A stretch of DNA of 64,000 nt from an uncultured Actinomycetota bacterium. Lineage in GTDB: Bacteria > Actinomycetota > UBA4738. The position numbers were made by a program, and so were the translations under genes. The notes under the pieces are model-generated. The model was not told the DNA's origin, did not search any database, and saw only the letters and a program-made list of their open reading frames with translations. Positions 7,286 through 57,525 of this stretch are shown here, piece by piece (within the stretch, counting starts at the first letter, position 1; every line of letters begins with the position of its first letter). The stretch spans positions 666,107-730,106 of the forward strand of contig CAWAGG010000006.1 of the NCBI GenBank assembly GCA_963781595.1. The letters run 5' to 3'.

Positions 7286-9673
7286 GTGGGGTTCAATCAC
7301 CGGCGCCTCGGACCTCGGCTCGTCGAGGCCGCGCGATCGGGCGAACGGAACCGTGACGCCCACGTCGTCCTGGGGGGCACCGGCGCGGTGGGCGGGACGG
7401 CGATCCTGCAGCTGCTCTCGCTCTACGAGGAGATGTTCGCGATCGCGGCACCCGACGACGACGACGTCCCCGTGCTCCTCGCGACCGGGGTCTCGCCCGA
7501 GGAGATCGGCGCGTTCACGAAGCGGCTCTTCCGCCACGTCGAATCCCTCCACGGTCCGGAGTGGCTGCCGCAACGGGTCCGGCGCGGGTACCTGACGCAT
7601 TCAGGCGTGTTCGTCGCGCTCGAACGCTTCACGGTGGGCACGTTGCCGGGGCTCGCCTCCGTGGTCGAGGCCGCGCCCGCGGACCGGGCCGCGGCGGCGG
7701 CGACCTTCCTGGCCTCGCTGGGCGTCGGCGGTGCCGGACCGGACGCCGTGTTCGACGCGCTCGCGGCCGCGATCGAGGCGACGAGGCCGTTCAGCGGGTT
7801 CCTCGAGGCGTACCGTTCCGAGCATCTCGAGCGCCGTGACGTCGAACGGTTCCGCAGCGTCACGCTCGCGATCCCCATCCCCAGCCTCGTCGCGTACCAC
7901 CAGGACGACCTGCAACACCTCGCGCATCAGGTCGAGGGCCTCGGGCCCGAGCACGTCGAACGGCTCAAGGAACGGTTCGTCCTGGCGCTACGCGACGACC
8001 TCGTGCGGGTGCGGTCGGTTGCGGACATCGTGCTCGTGGCCCATACGACCGGCGTCGGCGGCATGTACGACGAGCGCCCGGACGGATCGTCGACGATCCG
8101 GCTGGGGTTCGCGCACGCGGGCCTCGACCTCCGGCTCGCCGAGAAGCAGCGGTTCGCCGACGAGCTCACCCGGCTCTACAGCGCCGCGGGCATCAAGGTG
8201 CTGATCACGGCCGCGGCGATCGGCGTGGACGAGGTCCGGGTGCGCGACCGGATCCCCGTCCACCGGCAGATCCGCGAGCAGCTCCACGACGCGCCCACCG
8301 AGGTCTATCCGGGTTCGAAAGGCGCTGCGCGCCATACGCTCTGCTCGTACCGGCCGCTGACCGTCCCGCTCGACGAGCCGCCGGCAGGCGACGTGACGTT
8401 CGAACGCGGTTCGGAGCTCGTCCCCGCCTACACGGTGCGCAGCGGCGAGAACGGCTTCTTCAGCGTCGCGAACGCCGACGCCCTGTACCGCGTGATGCGG
8501 GTCGCGTCGGCCGGTGAGCTGGGCCTGGTGCTCGCGACCGTCGCGCTGCTCGACGACGATCCCGTGACCCCGTGGTTCCCGGGCGACGTCTGCTACTACA
8601 CGGAGACGGACAACGCGCGCCAGGTCCTGGACTTCCTGTCGCAGCCCTCGCTGATGGCCACCCAGCTGTCCGGCCTCGAGCCCGGCGCGCTGCAGGACCT
8701 GGGCTCGGCGAAGCACCAGGCCGAACTCCACACCCTCACGCTGCTGATCCTGCTCCACCGTCTCCGCACGTTCGACGTGGACGCGATCGATCCGTACGTC
8801 GACCTCGACCACTTCGATCCCGAGTGGTTCTTCGTGCAGAACTCGCGCGCGCTCACGTTCGAGGACGTCGGGGCGTGGGAGTTCGACCGCCTGGTGGCCG
8901 ACCTCACCCGGCTCGCCGGGGCCGAGGAGCCCGACGATCTCCTCGCGCTCACACCGCCGCGGGAGTACGGCCTGTTCCCGCAGCGCCGGGAGGCGCTCCG
9001 GCGGGTGTTGGACCGGGCGCTCCGGGCGGTCTGGACGCCGCCGTCGCTCGGGTCGCCGGTGCTGTTCGAACGTGCCGGCGTCACGATGGTAAGGATGGGT
9101 TACTATCTCGCGCCGCTCGACCTGCTCGTCACCCAGACGGACGCCGCGCTCACGTGGCTCCGCAAGGAGCACGCGGAGAGCGGGAACCCGTGTTCGTTCG
9201 AGGACTTCCGCGACTACCACGTCACCGTGGGAGGGTTCGTGGACCTGCGCGAGCACGCGACCGTGGTGAGCGCCCGGAGCGACCGCGACGACCTCACCGG
9301 CCACGTCGCACGGTTCGGCGACGAGGCGAGCCTCCGCGACCACCTGTGGACCCTCGAGCCGTATTCGTTCTTCTCGACCTCCGGCGTGCTGGCCCTCGTC
9401 TTCCGGCTGAAGGGCCTGTACGCCCAGCTCCGGGAGGTCCTGCTCGAGCTCGGCAGCCTGCAGGGCTATCGCTGGCAGATGCCGAGGGACGAACACGGCC
9501 ACATCCTGGTGGTCCCTGGCGCCGTCGAGGCGTTCCGGATGGTCGCTGAGGGCCTCGAGAAGACCACCGGCACCGAGCGCCTCGACGGGATCTGGGGCTA
9601 CGAGCCGCGACCGGTCGCCGACCGCCGCGGCCGGATCCCGGGCATCCAGCAGCCGAACGGCGACGGCCGGTAG
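7286..9673 (+). CDS. Large (795 aa) hypothetical protein with an N-terminal Rossmann-type GGTGAVGG motif
   Basis: Long uninterrupted frame with a GTG start. VVLGGTGAVGGTAILQ lies near the N-terminus. I recognise no other family signature. Confidence 0.7.
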   Translation: MGFNHRRLGPRLVEAARSGERNRDAHVVLGGTGAVGGTAILQLLSLYEEMFAIAAPDDDDVPVLLATGVSPEEIGAFTKRLFRHVESLHGPEWLPQRVRRGYLTHSGVFVALERFTVGTLPGLASVVEAAPADRAAAAATFLASLGVGGAGPDAVFDALAAAIEATRPFSGFLEAYRSEHLERRDVERFRSVTLAIPIPSLVAYHQDDLQHLAHQVEGLGPEHVERLKERFVLALRDDLVRVRSVADIVLVAHTTGVGGMYDERPDGSSTIRLGFAHAGLDLRLAEKQRFADELTRLYSAAGIKVLITAAAIGVDEVRVRDRIPVHRQIREQLHDAPTEVYPGSKGAARHTLCSYRPLTVPLDEPPAGDVTFERGSELVPAYTVRSGENGFFSVANADALYRVMRVASAGELGLVLATVALLDDDPVTPWFPGDVCYYTETDNARQVLDFLSQPSLMATQLSGLEPGALQDLGSAKHQAELHTLTLLILLHRLRTFDVDAIDPYVDLDHFDPEWFFVQNSRALTFEDVGAWEFDRLVADLTRLAGAEEPDDLLALTPPREYGLFPQRREALRRVLDRALRAVWTPPSLGSPVLFERAGVTMVRMGYYLAPLDLLVTQTDAALTWLRKEHAESGNPCSFEDFRDYHVTVGGFVDLREHATVVSARSDRDDLTGHVARFGDEASLRDHLWTLEPYSFFSTSGVLALVFRLKGLYAQLREVLLELGSLQGYRWQMPRDEHGHILVVPGAVEAFRMVAEGLEKTTGTERLDGIWGYEPRPVADRRGRIPGIQQPNGDGR

Positions 9674-9706
9674 GCCGCCCTTCATCCGGTTCGGCGGTTC
9701 GCCGGT

Positions 9707-10474
9707 TCAGGACTCGACGATCGGCGGGTTCGACTCGAACCGGGCCGCGGTCGCGCGCGCCTCGTCGACGAGGTCCATCGGCACCGGCCCAGGTTCGATG
9801 CCCCGACGCTCCGCGAACGCCTCGACGATCGCGTCGGCGGCGGCGTCCCACGTCAGGCCGGGTCGCTCGTCGGCGAGTGCCCCAACGGTCCGTGGGTCCC
9901 AGTCGAGCCCGAGCGCCCGGTAGACCGGGATCAGGACCTCGCGGATCCGGGCGGATCCGTCGACGACCACGACGCCGCCGACGTGCGCCGCGTGCGACAC
10001 CAACCGCTGGCCGACGCCCATCAGCTTCGTCCGGCCGCCCGCGTTCACGCTATGCTCGCCGGGGCAGTACTCGCCGGGAACGGCTCCCGCCCGGGCGTCG
10101 ATCCCCAACCGTCCGAACGCGCCGACCATCAGCGACGCGAGCTCGTCGAACCGCGCACGGATGCGCGCGCGGGGAGTGGCGTCGGGGAGCACCCACGAGA
10201 ATGCGATCGTGCCCTCGTGGAAGACGGCCGCGCGGCCGCCGGCGAGCCGTTCGACCGCTCCGAACCCGCGGTCGCGGGCCGCGGCCACGGCCTCCGCGTA
10301 GCCGGGTTCGTGCCGATCCTTCGGGCCGAACGCGACCACGGGGCCGGGCCGATACACGCGGAGGGCTTCGGGGTACCGACCGTCCGAGACGCGGCGGAGC
10401 AGGATGGACGACACGGCGGTGTCCAGTGCGGGCGGGGAGGGGAACCCATCGCGGAGCAGCAGTATCGGACCCAT
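9707..10474 (-). CDS. Biotin/lipoate A/B protein ligase family protein (LplA/LipM-like)
   Basis: Internal ATG at 10474 chosen because the upstream 100 codons are Arg/Pro junk overlapping the neighbouring gene. Sequence includes RVYRPGPVVAFGPKD...GGRAAVFHEGTIAFSWVLP...GEHSVNAGGRTKLMGVGQR. Confidence 0.75.
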   Translation of the reverse strand: MGPILLLRDGFPSPPALDTAVSSILLRRVSDGRYPEALRVYRPGPVVAFGPKDRHEPGYAEAVAAARDRGFGAVERLAGGRAAVFHEGTIAFSWVLPDATPRARIRARFDELASLMVGAFGRLGIDARAGAVPGEYCPGEHSVNAGGRTKLMGVGQRLVSHAAHVGGVVVVDGSARIREVLIPVYRALGLDWDPRTVGALADERPGLTWDAAADAIVEAFAERRGIEPGPVPMDLVDEARATAARFESNPPIVES

Positions 10475-12067: not shown

Positions 12068-12904
12068 GTGACGGTCACCTCGTCGCGCGACGGTGCGCCG
12101 CATGGCGCGAACGAGGGGGGCCGTTCCACACGGGCAGCGCCGATCGAGGCGCTGCGGGGGGGGTCTGAAGGATCCAACGGCGCCGCTGGGAGCACCCGGC
12201 TCCGGCTCCTCGGGCGCTTCGAACTCACCATCGACGGTGTCCCGAGGACGGTCCCCATCGCGGGACGAACGGTCCTCGCGCTCGTGGCGCTGGCCGAACG
12301 ACCGGTCCCGGTGAGCGACGCGGCCGCGACCCTGTGGCCCGCGACGGACCCCGGATGGGCGCCGGAGCGCCTCCGGTACGCGATGGAGAGCCTGGAGCGC
12401 GCGGGGCTCGACCTCGTCGACGAGCGTGATGGGATGCTGTCGCTCTGTCCGAACGTGCGGGTCGACGTCGCCGAGTCGCTCGCCACGGCTGCCTGGATCT
12501 CGAGCATGCCCGCAGCCGTGGCCGTCCCGCTCGACGAGGTCGCGGCGGAGGTTCGCCGCTGGGGCGACCTCCTCCCGGGCTGGTCCGACGATCACATCCT
12601 GATCGAACGGGAGCGCGTCCGGCGGATCCGCCTGCGTGCGCTCGAGGAGCTGGCCGAGCGATCGCTCCGTGACGGACGAGCCCGCGATGCGATCGAGGCC
12701 GCGAGCGCCGCCGTCGAGGCCGAACCCCTCCGCGAACGCGCCTGGAGCGCGTTGATCCGTGCCCACCTGGCCGCCGGCGACGCCCCGGGCGCGATACGCC
12801 GCTACGCCGCGTTCCATCGGCTCCTGTTCGGCGAGCTCCGGCGCGTCCCATCGATCGACCTCGAAGACCTGGTGCCCCCGCTGACGGTGGCGCTGACGAC
12901 GTGA
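12068..12904 (+). CDS. SARP/AfsR-type regulator (OmpR-like winged helix plus BTAD domain)
   Basis: LRLLGRFELTIDGVPRTVP...LLALVALA is followed by the BTAD signature EPLRERAWSALIRAHLAAGDAPGAIRRYAAFHRLLFGEL. Confidence 0.8.
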   Translation: MTVTSSRDGAPHGANEGGRSTRAAPIEALRGGSEGSNGAAGSTRLRLLGRFELTIDGVPRTVPIAGRTVLALVALAERPVPVSDAAATLWPATDPGWAPERLRYAMESLERAGLDLVDERDGMLSLCPNVRVDVAESLATAAWISSMPAAVAVPLDEVAAEVRRWGDLLPGWSDDHILIERERVRRIRLRALEELAERSLRDGRARDAIEAASAAVEAEPLRERAWSALIRAHLAAGDAPGAIRRYAAFHRLLFGELRRVPSIDLEDLVPPLTVALTT

Positions 12905-13221
12905 CCGTTCCGTCGTACGAGGGGGTCGAGGGGGTCGAGGGGGTCGAGGGGGTCGAGAGGTCGACCCACGGTCCGGGCTTCGCTCGCGCCGATCCCGACG
13001 CCGAGCGGACCGGGGTCATGGTCATCCGCGTCTGGATGGAGGGAGCCGGTCCGGTCGACGGGGAGGTCCGTGGCAGGATCACGTGGCGCCCGGACGTGGA
13101 TGCGTCCGGCGAGGAGGTGTTGGTCGCGGCCTCGACCGACGAGATCGCCGGGATCGTGGCGCGCCTCCTGGCCTCGTTCACGTGCCGCGACGCGGACCCT
13201 GCGGCCGACCCGCACGCGTAG
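12901..13221 (+). CDS. Small hypothetical protein translationally coupled to the SARP gene
   Basis: GTGA start/stop overlap at 12901-12904. Contains an (EGV)x4 repeat and the block VMVIRVWMEGAG...EVRGRITW. Confidence 0.5.
   Translation: MTVPSYEGVEGVEGVEGVERSTHGPGFARADPDAERTGVMVIRVWMEGAGPVDGEVRGRITWRPDVDASGEEVLVAASTDEIAGIVARLLASFTCRDADPAADPHA
12921..12956 (+). repeat. 9-bp tandem repeat gggggtcga x4
   Basis: Four perfect head-to-tail copies read directly from the sequence. They encode EGVEGVEGVEGV. Confidence 0.9.
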
Positions 13222-13260
13222 ACTGCCGATCCGACGAGTACGTCCGAGGAAGGGCCCGAC

Positions 13261-13743
13261 ATGCTGGCCGAAGGCGCCGTCGCACCGTCGTTCACGCTCC
13301 CGGATCAGGACGGGAACCCGGTCTCGCTCGCCGATCTGGCGGGGCGCTGGGTGGTGCTGTGGTGGTTCCCGAAGGCGTTCACGAGCGGCTGACGGCAGGA
13401 GCTGCAGGGGTTCCGTGACCGAACCCCCGAGTTCGAGGCCGCCGGCGTGGTCATGCTGGCCGCGTCGTTCGACACCCCGCAGGACAACCGGGCGTTCGCC
13501 GAACGGTACGCCTACCGGGGGACGCTCCTGTCCGACGTCGACCGGATCGCGGGCGCCGCGTACCAGACGGTCCGGCCAGCGGACGATCCCTCGGCCGAGT
13601 ACGCGAAGCGCCGAACGTTCGTGATCGACCCGGAGGGCGTGATCCGCCGGGTCTACGCGGTCAAGGACATCCCGGCGCATCCCACCGAGGTCCTGCAGGA
13701 TCTGCGCGAGCTGGGTGCGATCCCGTCCCGGCCCGGTCCCTAA
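13261..13743 (+). CDS. bcp: Bcp/PrxQ-type peroxiredoxin with an in-frame TGA (13390-13392) at the peroxidatic Cys position; candidate selenoprotein
   Basis: ATG at 13261 after GAGGAAGG. The product reads ...WWFPKAFTSG[TGA]RQELQGFRD..., which aligns to the Bcp active site PK..T.GC..E...FRD. The downstream ORF (13447..13743) is in the same frame. Confidence 0.65.
13399..13434 (+). promoter_or_regulatory. SECIS-like stem-loop beginning 6 nt after the in-frame TGA
   Basis: Upper stem GGGGUUC (13407-13413) pairs with GAACCCC (13421-13427) around the loop CGUGACC. Lower stem GAGCU (13399-13403) pairs with AGUUC (13430-13434) across a small internal loop. Confidence 0.45.
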
Positions 13744-15128
13744 GGCGGCGTCCGCATCGAGTCGAGCAGCGATGCGACGCTGCCGGCCGTCGTCAGCGGG
13801 TTGACGAAGCAGAACCGCATCACGCGTTCGCCCTTCCAGGTGCTCGGCAGCACGAACGCCCGCTGCTCGTCGAGCGACCGTCTCGACCAGGTCACGTAGT
13901 CATCCCCGCTCCAGCCCTCGCGGCGGAACACGACGATCGACAGCTCCGGTTCGAGCACGAGCTCGAAGCCGGGTCGGTGCTGGATGTCCTCGGCCACCTC
14001 GCGCGTGAGCGCAAGGACGTGCTCGACGCCGTCCCGGTACGCGTCGGTGCCGTGGGCGGCGAGCGAGAACCAGAACGGGAGGCCGCGCAGGCGGCGCGTC
14101 AGGTGGTACGCGTAGTGCGTCGGGTTCCATCCGCCCGAGATGTTCACGTCCTCGAGGTAGGCGGCCTCCTGCGTGTGCGCCGCCGCCGCGAGCCGGGGAT
14201 CGCGGTAGAGCAGCGCCGCGCAGTCGTACGGGGCGAACAGCCACTTGTGCGGATCGATCACCAGGGAGTTGGCCTCCTCGATCCCGTCGAACGACGGCCG
14301 GGCCGACGGGGCGGCCAGCGCCGCGCCCCCGTAGGCCGCGTCCACGTGGAACCAGACCGAGTGCCGTCGGCAGACCTCTGCGACGCCCGCCAGGTCGTCG
14401 ACGATGCCGACGTTCGTCGTCCCGGCGGTTGCGACGACTGCGAACAGTCCTTCGAGATCCTCGGCCGAGAGCGCCTCGATCGCCGTGGCGAGGTTCGACC
14501 CCGTGAGCCGGCCGCGCTCGTCGGGCGTGACGGGCACGACCTGGCTGTTCATGATCCGGGCGGCGGAGCGTATCGACGAATGCGCCTCGTCCACGGCCGC
14601 GATCCGCCATCGCGCCGGGCGGCCGAGCCCGTCCGCCCGTCGACGAGCGAGGGCGGCGTGGCGGGCGGCGACGAGTCCGCTCAGGTTCCCGGCGGACCCG
14701 CCAGAGACGAAGGTTCCCCCGGCCTCAGGCGGCAGGCCTGCCAGATCGGCGAGCCACCGGAGCGCCTGGTTCTCCGCGTAGACGCCGCCCGCGGCCTCCA
14801 TCCAGGTCGCGCCGACCGTGGAGGACGCGCTCACGATCAGATCGAACAGCACCGACGCCTTCGTGGGGGCCGCCGGCACGAACGCGAGGAACAGCGGATG
14901 GTCCGTGGAGATCGTGGCCGGCGCGAGCCGGTCGCGGTAGATGCGGAACGCCTCTTGCGCGCCCAAGCCCGTGTCGGTGATCGTCGCGCCGACGTGCGCC
15001 GCGAGCGACTCCGGCGACTCCGGCCGGTCGAGGGGTGGGGGATCGAGGGAGAGCCGGCGCGTCGCGTACTCGACGATCGCCGATCCGATCTCGGCGGTCT
15101 CCGGCGTGTAACGGTGCATCCGCTCCAT
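13740..15128 (-). CDS. Group II pyridoxal-phosphate-dependent decarboxylase
   Basis: ATG at 15128 verified (MERMHRYTPE). Motifs include SGGSAGNLSGL, HVDAAYGGAA and the PLP-lysine motif VIDPHKWLFAPYDC. The 257 upstream codons of the track ORF are Pro/Arg junk. Confidence 0.85.
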   Translation of the reverse strand: MERMHRYTPETAEIGSAIVEYATRRLSLDPPPLDRPESPESLAAHVGATITDTGLGAQEAFRIYRDRLAPATISTDHPLFLAFVPAAPTKASVLFDLIVSASSTVGATWMEAAGGVYAENQALRWLADLAGLPPEAGGTFVSGGSAGNLSGLVAARHAALARRRADGLGRPARWRIAAVDEAHSSIRSAARIMNSQVVPVTPDERGRLTGSNLATAIEALSAEDLEGLFAVVATAGTTNVGIVDDLAGVAEVCRRHSVWFHVDAAYGGAALAAPSARPSFDGIEEANSLVIDPHKWLFAPYDCAALLYRDPRLAAAAHTQEAAYLEDVNISGGWNPTHYAYHLTRRLRGLPFWFSLAAHGTDAYRDGVEHVLALTREVAEDIQHRPGFELVLEPELSIVVFRREGWSGDDYVTWSRRSLDEQRAFVLPSTWKGERVMRFCFVNPLTTAGSVASLLDSMRTPP

Positions 15129-17561: not shown

Positions 17562-17638
17562 GCCTAGCCGTCATCCGGCCTCGTGCCGATCGACGGCCGC
17601 GAACCTCGCCGGCGCGGTCCCGGCGCTAACGTAGGCAG

Positions 17639-18544
17639 ATGCCGGAGCTTCCGGAGGTGCAGGCGCTGGCCGAGCGGCTCGAGGCCGTCCTCGCCGGCGC
17701 GGAGCTGGCCGCGCTCCGGCCGCTGCAGTTCTCCGCGCTGAAGACGTTCGATCCGCCGCCCGAGTCGGTGATCGGCCTGCGCGTCGAGCACGTCGGCCGG
17801 CGCGGGAAGTTCCTGGTGTTCGGGTTCGGCGTGGAAGCGCCGCGCCTGCTGATCCACCTCTCGCAGGGCGGCCGGATCGACGTCGAGTCGCCGCCGAAGG
17901 ACACGAAGCCGAAGGGCTCGGTGCTGCGGCTGCTGTTCCGCGGCCCGGGCCGCCCGTCGATCCTGGTCAAGGAGTTCGGCACCGAACGCAAGGCGGGGTG
18001 GTGGGTCGTGGCGCCCGGCGACGACGGGCCGCTCGCGAAGCTCGGGCCGGAGCCGGATTCGGAGGGGTTCGCAGAGCTGATCCTGCACGGCGACGACCGG
18101 CGGCGGGTCCACACGATCCTGCGTGACCAGCGCTCGGTGGCTGGGATCGGCCGCGGATACACGGACGACGCATTGCACTGCGCGCGCCTGTCGCCGTTCG
18201 CCTCCCTCGCCGGCCTGGACGACGAACAGCGCCGAACGCTCCTGGGTTCGATCCACGAGGTCCTGGACGAGGCGTTGGAGGGCGAACGCCAACGTGAGGG
18301 CGGGCTGCCGCCGAAGCTCGGGGACCGGTTCGTCGCGCACAACCGGTGGGGGACGCCGTGTCCGCGGTGCGGGGACGACCTGCGCCGGGTGTCCTATGAG
18401 AGCCACGAGGTCACGTACTGCCCGACGTGTCAGACCGGCGGCCAGATCCTGGCCGATCGCCGCATGTCCCGGCTGCTCGGCAAGCCGGCTACGACGAAGA
18501 GCCGCAGCGCCGCGCCCGTCGATGAGGAGGCGCCGGCCTCGTGA
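17639..18544 (+). CDS. Fpg/Nei family DNA glycosylase/AP lyase
   Basis: N-terminal MPELPEV. C-terminal zinc finger CPRCG...CPTCQ. Confidence 0.85.
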
Positions 18545-56269: not shown

Positions 56270-57154
56270 TTACGCCACCTCCTCCCTCTCGGCGAGCGCC
56301 CGATAGTAGGCCGCTTCGAACTCCACCGGTGGGACGCCGCCACATGCGCCGTGTAGCCGTCGCTCATTCCACCACCCCACCCACTCGGCGGTGGCGAGCT
56401 CGACCTGATCGACCGTGCGCCAAGGGCCCCGGGGACGGATGAGCTCGGCCTTGTACAGCCCGTTCACGGTCTCGGCCAGAGCATTGTCGAAGCTGTCCCC
56501 CTTGGATCCGACGGAGGCCACGGCGCCGCACTCGGCCAGGCGCTCGGTGTAGCGGATGGACAGGTACTGCACGCCGCGATCGGAGTGATGCACGAGGCCC
56601 TCCAGAGCGCTCTTGCGGCTCCAGATGGCCATCTCCAGGGCGTCCAGGGCGAGATCGGCCCGCAGCGAGGAGGAGACCCTCCAGCCCACGATCATGCGGG
56701 AGAACGCGTCGGTGATGAACGACGTGTAGCAGAAGCCCGACCAGGTCGAGACGTAGGTCAGATCCGAGACCCAGAGCAGGTTCGGAGCCGGAGCGGCGAA
56801 GATGCGCTCGACCAGGTCCGCCGGACGGGCGGCCTGGGCGTCCGCGACGGTGGTGCGCCTGCGCTTGCCCCTCCTGACCCCTTCCAGGCCCAGGACGCCC
56901 ATGAGACGGGCGACCCGGTCCCGGCCGACGTCGACGCCCTCCCGGTTCAGCTGCCGCCAGAGCTTCTCCGCTCCATAGACCGAGAAGTTCTCGCGGTGGA
57001 CCCGGGTGATCTCAGGCTTCAGCTCGGCGTCGCGGAGCGACCGGGCCGACGGAGGGCGGCTCCGGTGCGCGTAGTAGGTGGATGGGGCGAACTGCAGCAC
57101 CCTGCAGATCGGCTCGACCCCCCATCGGTGACGGTGCTCCTCGATGAAGGCCAC
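56270..57154 (-). CDS. IS3 transposase orfB (DDE rve integrase core)
   Basis: In the -1 frame relative to orfA and open upstream of the orfA stop. Contains LWVSDLTYV (D), HHSDRGVQYLS (D) and NALAETVNGLYKAE (E). Confidence 0.85.
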   Translation of the reverse strand: MAFIEEHRHRWGVEPICRVLQFAPSTYYAHRSRPPSARSLRDAELKPEITRVHRENFSVYGAEKLWRQLNREGVDVGRDRVARLMGVLGLEGVRRGKRRRTTVADAQAARPADLVERIFAAPAPNLLWVSDLTYVSTWSGFCYTSFITDAFSRMIVGWRVSSSLRADLALDALEMAIWSRKSALEGLVHHSDRGVQYLSIRYTERLAECGAVASVGSKGDSFDNALAETVNGLYKAELIRPRGPWRTVDQVELATAEWVGWWNERRLHGACGGVPPVEFEAAYYRALAEREEVA

Positions 57155-57525
57155 TACCTCGGCAGTCGCGGGTCGAGCTCCCGCGCGAAGAAACTTGCCG
57201 CGGCCTTGAGGATCTCGTTGGCCCGGCGGAGCTCGCGGACCTCCCGCTCGAGCTCGGCCGTGCGCCGGCGCTCCTCGGTGCTCACCCCGGAGCGGCTCCC
57301 GGCGTCGACCTCGGCCTGGCGGACCCAGGTGCGCAGCGACTCCGCGCCGATCCCGAGCTGGCGGGCCACCCGGGTCACCACGCCGAAGCGCTCCCCGCCG
57401 TTCTCCTCGATGCCCTGCTGGACCATCCTGATCGCCCGCTCACGAAGCTCCGGCGGGTACCTCTTCTGGGACTGGTTGGCTGCCATGACTCCATCTTCCT
57501 TTCCAAGCGATGGAGCCTCCACCAT
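57154..57525 (-). CDS. IS3 transposase orfA (HTH_Tnp_1)
   Basis: Contains KRYPPELRERAIRMV and a leucine-zipper-like tail ELRRANEILKAAASFFARE. The likely true start is the ATG at 57486, inside the track ORF. Confidence 0.85.
   Translation of the reverse strand: MVEAPSLGKEDGVMAANQSQKRYPPELRERAIRMVQQGIEENGGERFGVVTRVARQLGIGAESLRTWVRQAEVDAGSRSGVSTEERRRTAELEREVRELRRANEILKAAASFFARELDPRLPR

Follow-up and report, generated by a model that had tools for sequence, protein, structure and literature searches.

Does the gene at 13261-13743 on the plus strand encode one selenocysteine (Sec)-containing peroxiredoxin, or is it the debris of a broken one? The window, by which we mean the whole 64,000-nucleotide stretch of uncultured Actinomycetota DNA that was analyzed, carries at this locus a gene that is present in public records only as fragments of 43 aa and 98 aa. 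An earlier note made from the sequence alone had read the same interval as one 160-aa Bcp/PrxQ-like protein produced by read-through of a TGA, and comparison with protein families bears this out. The interval is a single 161-codon frame whose sole internal TGA (13390-13392) is in frame with both ATG 13261 and TAA 13741-13743, and the 116 codons that follow the TGA are fully intact (Table 1). The read-through product matches the Pfam AhpC-TSA family (PF00578) over residues 5-130 (E = 2.7e-33; 115 bits, cut-off 26). In the PDB, 141 peroxiredoxin sequences match it at E ≤ 1e-3, the top matches being archaeal and bacterial Bcp proteins (best 2ywn, E = 7.8e-21). Translation from 13261 is supported by a good Shine-Dalgarno-like sequence in front of an ORF that, without read-through, would give 43 aa.

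Table 1. Features of the candidate selenoprotein locus, in window coordinates.
Feature	Coordinates	Strand	Remarks
Shine-Dalgarno-like GAGGAAGGG	13246-13254	+	6 nt 5´ of ATG 13261; from sequence
Probable selenoprotein gene, BCP/PrxQ-type peroxiredoxin	13261-13743	+	160 aa, U = residue 44; stop TAA 13741-13743
UGA, candidate Sec codon	13390-13392	+	peroxidatic Cys position, U44
Extended helix with lower stem GAGCU/AGUUC	13399-13434	+	MFE structure; conserved only in part
SECIS-type hairpin	13407-13427	+	GGGGUUC 13407-13413, loop CGUGACC 13414-13420, GAACCCC 13421-13427
R117 codon	13609-13611	+	aligns with the peroxiredoxin active-site Arg (KR-RTFVID) in 2ywn and 5enu

Active site and conservation of the TGA

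Upon alignment with the Bcp structures 2ywn and 5enu, P37, T41 and U44 of the window protein fall on the P-x3-T-x2-C motif, and the TGA thus occupies the peroxidatic Cys column, exactly the catalytic position to which it had been assigned. The window protein and the products of 24 other Sec-type genes contain no Cys at all, and the Acidimicrobiia-type Sec genes encode a single one, at residue 63. The resolving Cys at +5 (CxxxxC), which is kept by the distant Cys-type homologues at genome loci with the exception of L080, is absent from the window protein. Because the proteins of the window's clade lack Cys, they are predicted to be 1-Sec enzymes that require an external reductant, and the window protein is, on the evidence of its residues, such an enzyme and not a typical CxxxxC Bcp. 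By family scores it is closest to BCP/PrxQ, yet lies in a divergent clade, with Bcp (NF006960, 81.6 bits, cut-off 140) and PrxQ (NF053650, 78.2 bits, cut-off 260) as the best NCBIfam families. None of the dedicated NCBIfam selenoprotein models covers it: PrxU (NF040737) gave 41 bits against a cut-off of 270 and Prx-SUH (NF045827) 19.6 against 298, and membership in either family was ruled out by scores so far under the curated cut-offs.

A tblastn scan in which each GTDB species was represented by one genome gave 80 related loci, and the matches in these 80 genomes run across the TGA position, from residue 1 to ~151. The closest homologues found are 47 sequences that themselves carry TGA at the U44 codon, comprising 46 genome loci (L001-L043, L045, L049 and L070) and a metagenome contig (L084), all with in-frame homology on both flanks of the TGA. 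TGC or TGT occupies the column in more distant loci. We checked the orthologues for Cys/Sec interchange at this position and counted 48 Sec-type genes, the window included, and 37 Cys-type genes; none of the orthologues carries a true truncation at the TGA. Most hosts of the TGA-type genes are uncultured Actinomycetota and Acidimicrobiia; one belongs to the Terriglobales and another to the Neomarinimicrobiota. In comparisons with relatives, dN/dS is about 0.1-0.3 upstream of the TGA; downstream of it dN is about 0.25-0.42 and dN/dS is mostly < 1. The A at 13392 was also checked: a Logan assembly made independently from run ERR11718635 (L083) is 100% identical to window positions 12928-14075 (1148 bases), TGA included, with no TGC or TGT at the codon.

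Public protein sets misannotate this clade systematically. NCBI, ENA and Logan split the gene into 43-aa and roughly 98-aa fragments (e.g. P0008). Of the best 120 relatives, about two thirds are on record as C-terminal stubs whose 88-117 aa begin immediately behind the TGA. Several JGI proteins (P0001, P0006, P0009, P0010 and P0016) carry W at the Sec site, these calls having evidently applied a code in which TGA is read as Trp; the codon was checked for P0001, which comes from L084, and is TGA. The translation of P0001 also reads through a second, spurious TGA.

In a neighbor-joining tree computed with the Sec/Cys column masked, and which carries no support values, several Cys lineages are nested in a mainly Sec clade, with P0002-P0004 sister to the window plus L001, and the Sec forms L045 and L049 sit among ordinary 2-Cys BCPs. 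The nested Cys lineages, together with the placement of L045 and L049, suggest that Sec and Cys have switched repeatedly in this family. The Terriglobales gene (L045, position 508) is a Sec-type BCP that keeps the +5 Cys (Cys49) and has a differing downstream hairpin, which suggests independent Cys-to-Sec conversions; the Neomarinimicrobiota gene (L049, position 10130) is a Sec-type BCP without any Cys.

A hairpin downstream of the TGA

The earlier note had described a two-part helix 3´ of the UGA, GAGCU/AGUUC followed by GGGGUUC/GAACCCC with the loop CGUGACC, and this equals the minimum free energy (MFE) structure that we predicted. Numbered from the U of UGA, the lower helix pairs nt 10-14 with 41-45 and the upper helix nt 18-24 with 32-38, which places the lower helix 6 nt, the upper hairpin 14 nt and the loop 21 nt from the UGA. 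The predicted MFE is -10.5 kcal/mol for the hairpin alone and -17.8 kcal/mol with the lower helix. The bacterial SECIS (bSECIS) model specifies a loop of 3-9 nt, an upper stem of 4-16 bp, a UGA-to-loop distance of 16-37 nt and an MFE ≤ -7.5 kcal/mol, with a G within the first two loop positions that often is followed by G or U (2026 review, PMC13188914). With its 7-nt loop, 7-bp stem, G-U at loop positions 2-3 and 21-nt spacing, the window hairpin agrees with the published constraints (PMC13188914) on all four counts, and the geometry that had been claimed for it holds. A covariance model scanned against the window matched this hairpin site only, and an Rfam search matched no family to it. Judged as a single sequence, the hairpin stands out weakly from dinucleotide shuffles (z = -1.49) and from synonymous-codon resampling (p about 0.06). 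Since it is unremarkable alone, its significance rests on comparative data.

Among the 47 Sec-type genes, 44 have a 6-7-bp stem that begins at nt 18 or 19 and a loop that starts CGUGA, and no comparable hairpin was found at the same offset in Cys-type genes. The stem sequence is specific to the clade (GGGGUUC/GAACCCC, GGGGCUC/GAGCCCC, GGAGUUC/GAGCUCC, GGCCUG/CAGGCC, GGCUCUG/CAGAGCC, GGCACUG/CAGUGCC, GAGCCUG/CAGGCUC and GGGAUUC/GAAUUCC), and across clades the loop is 7, 6 or 5 nt long. We applied one fitting rule to Sec and Cys genes alike, with the 5´ arm fixed and the loop length picked from 5-7 nt; under this rule, 33 of the 48 Sec genes form 7/7 pairs, 14 form 6/7 and one forms 5/7, whereas 5/7 is the most that any of the 36 Cys genes reaches. 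In a structural alignment across clades, for which loop length was fitted and whose 48 phylogenetically related sequences include 19 distinct ones, 94.7% of the cells pair and changes on both sides, that is, compensatory changes, are seen in six of the seven pairs. The observed pairing and covariation were reached by none of 500 shuffles, and shifting the partner by one column lowers pairing to 44-54%. Covariation in the hairpin, which the earlier note had named as a check, is present across the clades; in the clade of the window itself, 99.4% of the stem is paired and there is hardly any variation.

The lower helix behaves differently along its length. Three of its pairs (10-45, 11-44 and 12-43) form in every sequence of the window's clade and are invariant or changed on one side; pair 13-42 is open in 21 and pair 14-41 in 18 of the 22 clade sequences, and these two are specific to the window. 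Membership of the lower helix in the conserved element was ruled out on these grounds, as the upper helix alone is conserved in relatives.

Part of the pairing follows from the protein. The hairpin encodes the peptide G-F/L-R-D-R/Q-x-(P), a conserved peroxiredoxin motif that alone forces about 5/7 pairs, and resampling of synonymous codons under an independent codon usage gave p values between about 0.05 and 0.14 for individual sequences, with a median of 0.076. The choice of codons adds to this. For the Arg in the loop, 46 of the 48 Sec genes use CGT, as against none of the 28 Cys genes with Arg at this position (23 CGC and 5 CGG), and it is CGT that supplies the G-U expected by the bSECIS loop consensus. 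CGT and CGA make up 8% and 9% of the Arg codons of this genome, and the window hairpin uses both. In addition, dS falls to 0.12-0.6 over codons 45-62, compared with about 0.4-2.6 in flanking segments, and paired amino-acid swaps preserve the pairing, as in F(TTC)...R(CGA) versus L(CTG)...Q(CAG). The CGT bias, the rare CGT and CGA codons and the drop in dS exceed what the protein requires and mark a constraint at the RNA level.

The closest true Cys forms, L085-L087 (TGC, about 70% identity), no longer have the canonical hairpin, as their sequence diverges 3´ of FRDR. In L085 (737-784), a different 6-bp hairpin, CCGCGA/UCGCGG, lies ~5 nt further downstream with a predicted energy (-15 kcal/mol) similar to that of the canonical one; this shifted hairpin may be a remnant or may have arisen by chance where the sequence is rich in GC.

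Selenocysteine decoding and rival readings

TGA ends 10 of the window's 15 confident genes, more than any other genuine stop, and the standard code therefore applies; genome-wide reassignment of TGA was ruled out on this count. We scanned the window for further selenoprotein genes and found none that was convincing. ARAGORN detected no tRNA-Sec in the window and 46 loci, and Rfam matched nothing in the window but an ALIL pseudoknot. The E. coli proteins SelA, SelB and SelD, searched for by tblastn in the window and about 1.2 Mb of related loci, gave weak GTPase matches only, the sole SelB-like match in a Sec-type locus (L003) being an EF-G-family protein. The absence of sel genes from the window weighs little, since its 64 kb, part of a contig of 3,060,016 bp, are about 2% of the genome. 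In the Acidimicrobiia, selA, selB, selC and selD have been reported in all 84 complete genomes of the order Actinomarinales (preprint, bioRxiv 10.64898/2026.04.03.716425).

We consider it very probable that the gene encodes a Sec-containing peroxiredoxin of the BCP/PrxQ type and that the hairpin serves as a bacterial SECIS. Translation would begin at ATG 13261 and would not terminate at the UGA, where the hairpin 14 nt downstream would act as the SECIS and recruit SelB with GTP and Sec-tRNA(Sec). Sec would be inserted at the peroxidatic site of the PxxxTxxU motif, and translation would proceed to the TAA; selA, selB, selC and selD would all be expected in this genome. The selenolate of the finished enzyme would reduce H2O2 or organic hydroperoxides and be converted to a selenenic acid. 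Its recycling, we infer, would fall to an external reductant; thioredoxin and a low-molecular-weight thiol are examples, as is, in some relatives, a neighboring AhpD-like protein with a CxxU motif.

Other accounts of the locus have to be weighed against this one. The lineage may once have used Sec and this genome since have lost the sel machinery, leaving a decaying gene that yields a 43-aa fragment. Such a history would agree with the lack of a sel gene or tRNA-Sec within the 64-kb window, with the frequent loss of selenoproteins and of the Sec trait in bacteria (PMC1794560), and with the Cys lineages nested in the Sec clade, among which P0002-P0004, as sister to the window, point to Sec being abandoned here. 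Against decay stand an ORF that is intact in all codons after the TGA, a hairpin without a mismatch (7/7 pairs) to which a lower helix is added, the retention of the rare CGT and CGA codons in its loop and stem, and a good Shine-Dalgarno sequence before the ATG. Given, too, how small a share of the genome was available for finding sel genes, we regard this history as improbable. No better, and if anything marginally worse, are the prospects of a reading in which the UGA is recoded to a residue other than Sec, either Cys, by way of a tRNA-Sec-like tRNA and a SelB-like factor, or Trp or Cys, by near-cognate read-through. SECIS-dependent insertion of Cys has been described in the literature, and all of the evidence would fit it equally well, as sequence data cannot tell which residue is inserted. 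Sec is nevertheless the only well-established outcome for an architecture of this kind, and Sec-containing peroxiredoxins have been verified experimentally (PMC13188914). Plain read-through, for its part, would not require the hairpin to be conserved, to covary and to keep its distance from the UGA, and an enzyme with Trp as its peroxidatic residue would be inactive; the active-site Trp of several database proteins was rejected as a gene-caller artefact, the codon in L084 being TGA.

We give next to no credence to the reading with which public gene calls agree, namely that the 43-aa and 98-aa ORFs are what is left of a Cys-type bcp gene broken by a nonsense mutation, turned into a pseudogene or misread in sequencing. 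The identical, independent Logan assembly rules out a sequencing or assembly error. The 47 other sequences that share the TGA come from several classes and phyla and are conserved in frame, and with the conservation on its two sides they rule out a pseudogene. Purifying selection before and after the TGA, combined with the RNA-level constraint just downstream, likewise argues against a broken gene.

Upstream of the peroxiredoxin gene (prx), the window contains a gene for an HTH-TPR regulator on the minus strand, one for a BTAD-domain regulator, and a 106-aa ORF without a family; downstream, convergent genes encode a PLP-dependent decarboxylase and a class-III aminotransferase, and an Fpg/Nei DNA glycosylase gene follows (17630-18544, +). 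The glycosylase gene also is linked to prx in L001, L006, L011, L013 and L019, and in many Cys-type loci (e.g. L053, L061 and L071, at about 9140-9999), often directly adjacent, a pairing that fits a role in defense against oxidative damage. The 106-aa ORF (12901-13221, +) ends 39 nt 5´ of prx, is in the prx frame, has a start that overlaps the stop of the BTAD gene and matched no Pfam family. Near its N-terminus, a perfect 9-nt tandem repeat (CGAGGGGGT, 4.4 copies, 12918-12957, +) encodes (EGV)n. Further away, 57083-57199 on the minus strand matches the Rfam ALIL pseudoknot (RF01497, 80.7 bits, E = 5.8e-19), the frameshift-stimulating element of IS3-family transposases, and probably marks an insertion sequence. 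The GC content near the end of the window (62-64 kb) is 0.63, compared with about 0.71 overall.

Some relatives carry a second gene with an in-frame TGA beside prx. Directly 5´ of it in L020, L021, L031, L032 and L033 is an AhpD/CMD-like gene in which the TGA completes a CxxU motif (VVNEC-H-Y-U-VPTHIALG). These are Acidimicrobiia-type loci; in L021 the gene spans 9386-9991 with the TGA at 9632, and the copy in L022 looks degraded. From its sequence, the AhpD-like gene looks like a second selenoprotein gene next to the Sec-peroxiredoxin gene, and by analogy with AhpC/AhpD its product could be the reductant partner. Directly 3´ of prx in four loci of the window's clade (L009, L014, L015 and L016), a rhodanese-CBS gene has an in-frame TGA where the CX4R loop has its catalytic residue (VYCWDxA-U-DLSPRAAW), making its U-x4-R product a candidate selenoprotein of the rhodanese type; the gene lies at 3922-4638 in L016 (TGA 4123), its TGA is at 10676 in L009 and at 8562 in L014, and the window has no copy. 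AhpD-like proteins and rhodaneses both are among the selenoprotein families listed in the GOS survey. The occurrence of TGA at catalytic positions in these genes beside prx indicates that the lineages concerned decode Sec.

Relation to known Sec-peroxiredoxins

That Sec-containing peroxiredoxin-like proteins exist in bacteria, as the earlier note had stated, is well established: Sec-Prx (PF00578, PxxxTxxU) is an experimentally verified family of bacterial selenoproteins (PMC13188914, PMC1794560, PMC5029168). It ranked among the top ten selenoprotein families, in 78 organisms, in a 2016 survey (PMC5029168), five Cys-to-Sec conversions were inferred for it in 2006 (PMC1794560), and Actinobacteria are listed as a phylum rich in selenoprotein families. 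The window gene is a new member of the Sec-peroxiredoxins, or stands for a sizeable unannotated clade within them. A search of the accessible literature found no paper that describes a Sec-BCP/PrxQ clade as such. A more far-reaching proposal, which is possible but which we advance with considerable doubt, is that soil Actinomycetota and Acidimicrobiia harbor a large, so far unannotated clade of Cys-free 1-Sec BCPs that has its own type of SECIS (loop CGUGA), that has switched repeatedly between Sec and Cys and that, in some lineages, would form an all-selenium relay with a neighboring selenoprotein, either the AhpD-like CxxU protein or the CX4R rhodanese.

Under the Sec reading that we favor, the annotation of the locus is corrected from two fragments to one selenoprotein gene. 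The finding would imply Sec decoding in this actinobacterium and in dozens of related uncultured soil lineages, and the Sec-peroxiredoxins would gain a Cys-free, BCP/PrxQ-type clade that escapes the present selenoprotein models of NCBI. With many Sec and Cys forms nested in it, this clade would offer a natural system for asking when selenium beats sulfur in peroxide defense. Our understanding of selenoprotein function is unchanged.

Like the catalogued Sec-Prx proteins, the window protein has the AhpC/TSA fold, Sec predicted in PxxxTxxU, abundant Cys homologues, a bSECIS hairpin within the ORF and a family history of repeated switches; its clade differs in being BCP/PrxQ-like, about 155 aa long, Cys-free and found in uncultured soil Actinomycetota and Acidimicrobiia. 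In PrxU of Eubacterium acidaminophilum (NF040737), a verified Sec-Prx, Sec likewise replaces the peroxidatic Cys, but PrxU is about 233 aa long and belongs to another subfamily, as the score of the window protein against its model indicates. With E. coli Bcp and Deinococcus PrxQ, which are thioredoxin-dependent atypical 2-Cys enzymes, the window protein shares its length and the PK..T.G[C/U]..E...FRD context, whereas it would have Sec in place of Cys, lacks the +5 resolving Cys and scores under the curated cut-offs. Finally, the hairpin resembles the SECIS of the E. coli fdhF type in lying within the ORF 3´ of the UGA, in its small loop with an early G-U and in its spacing within 16-37 nt, but has no resemblance to it in sequence, and its CGUGA loop motif is specific to the clade.
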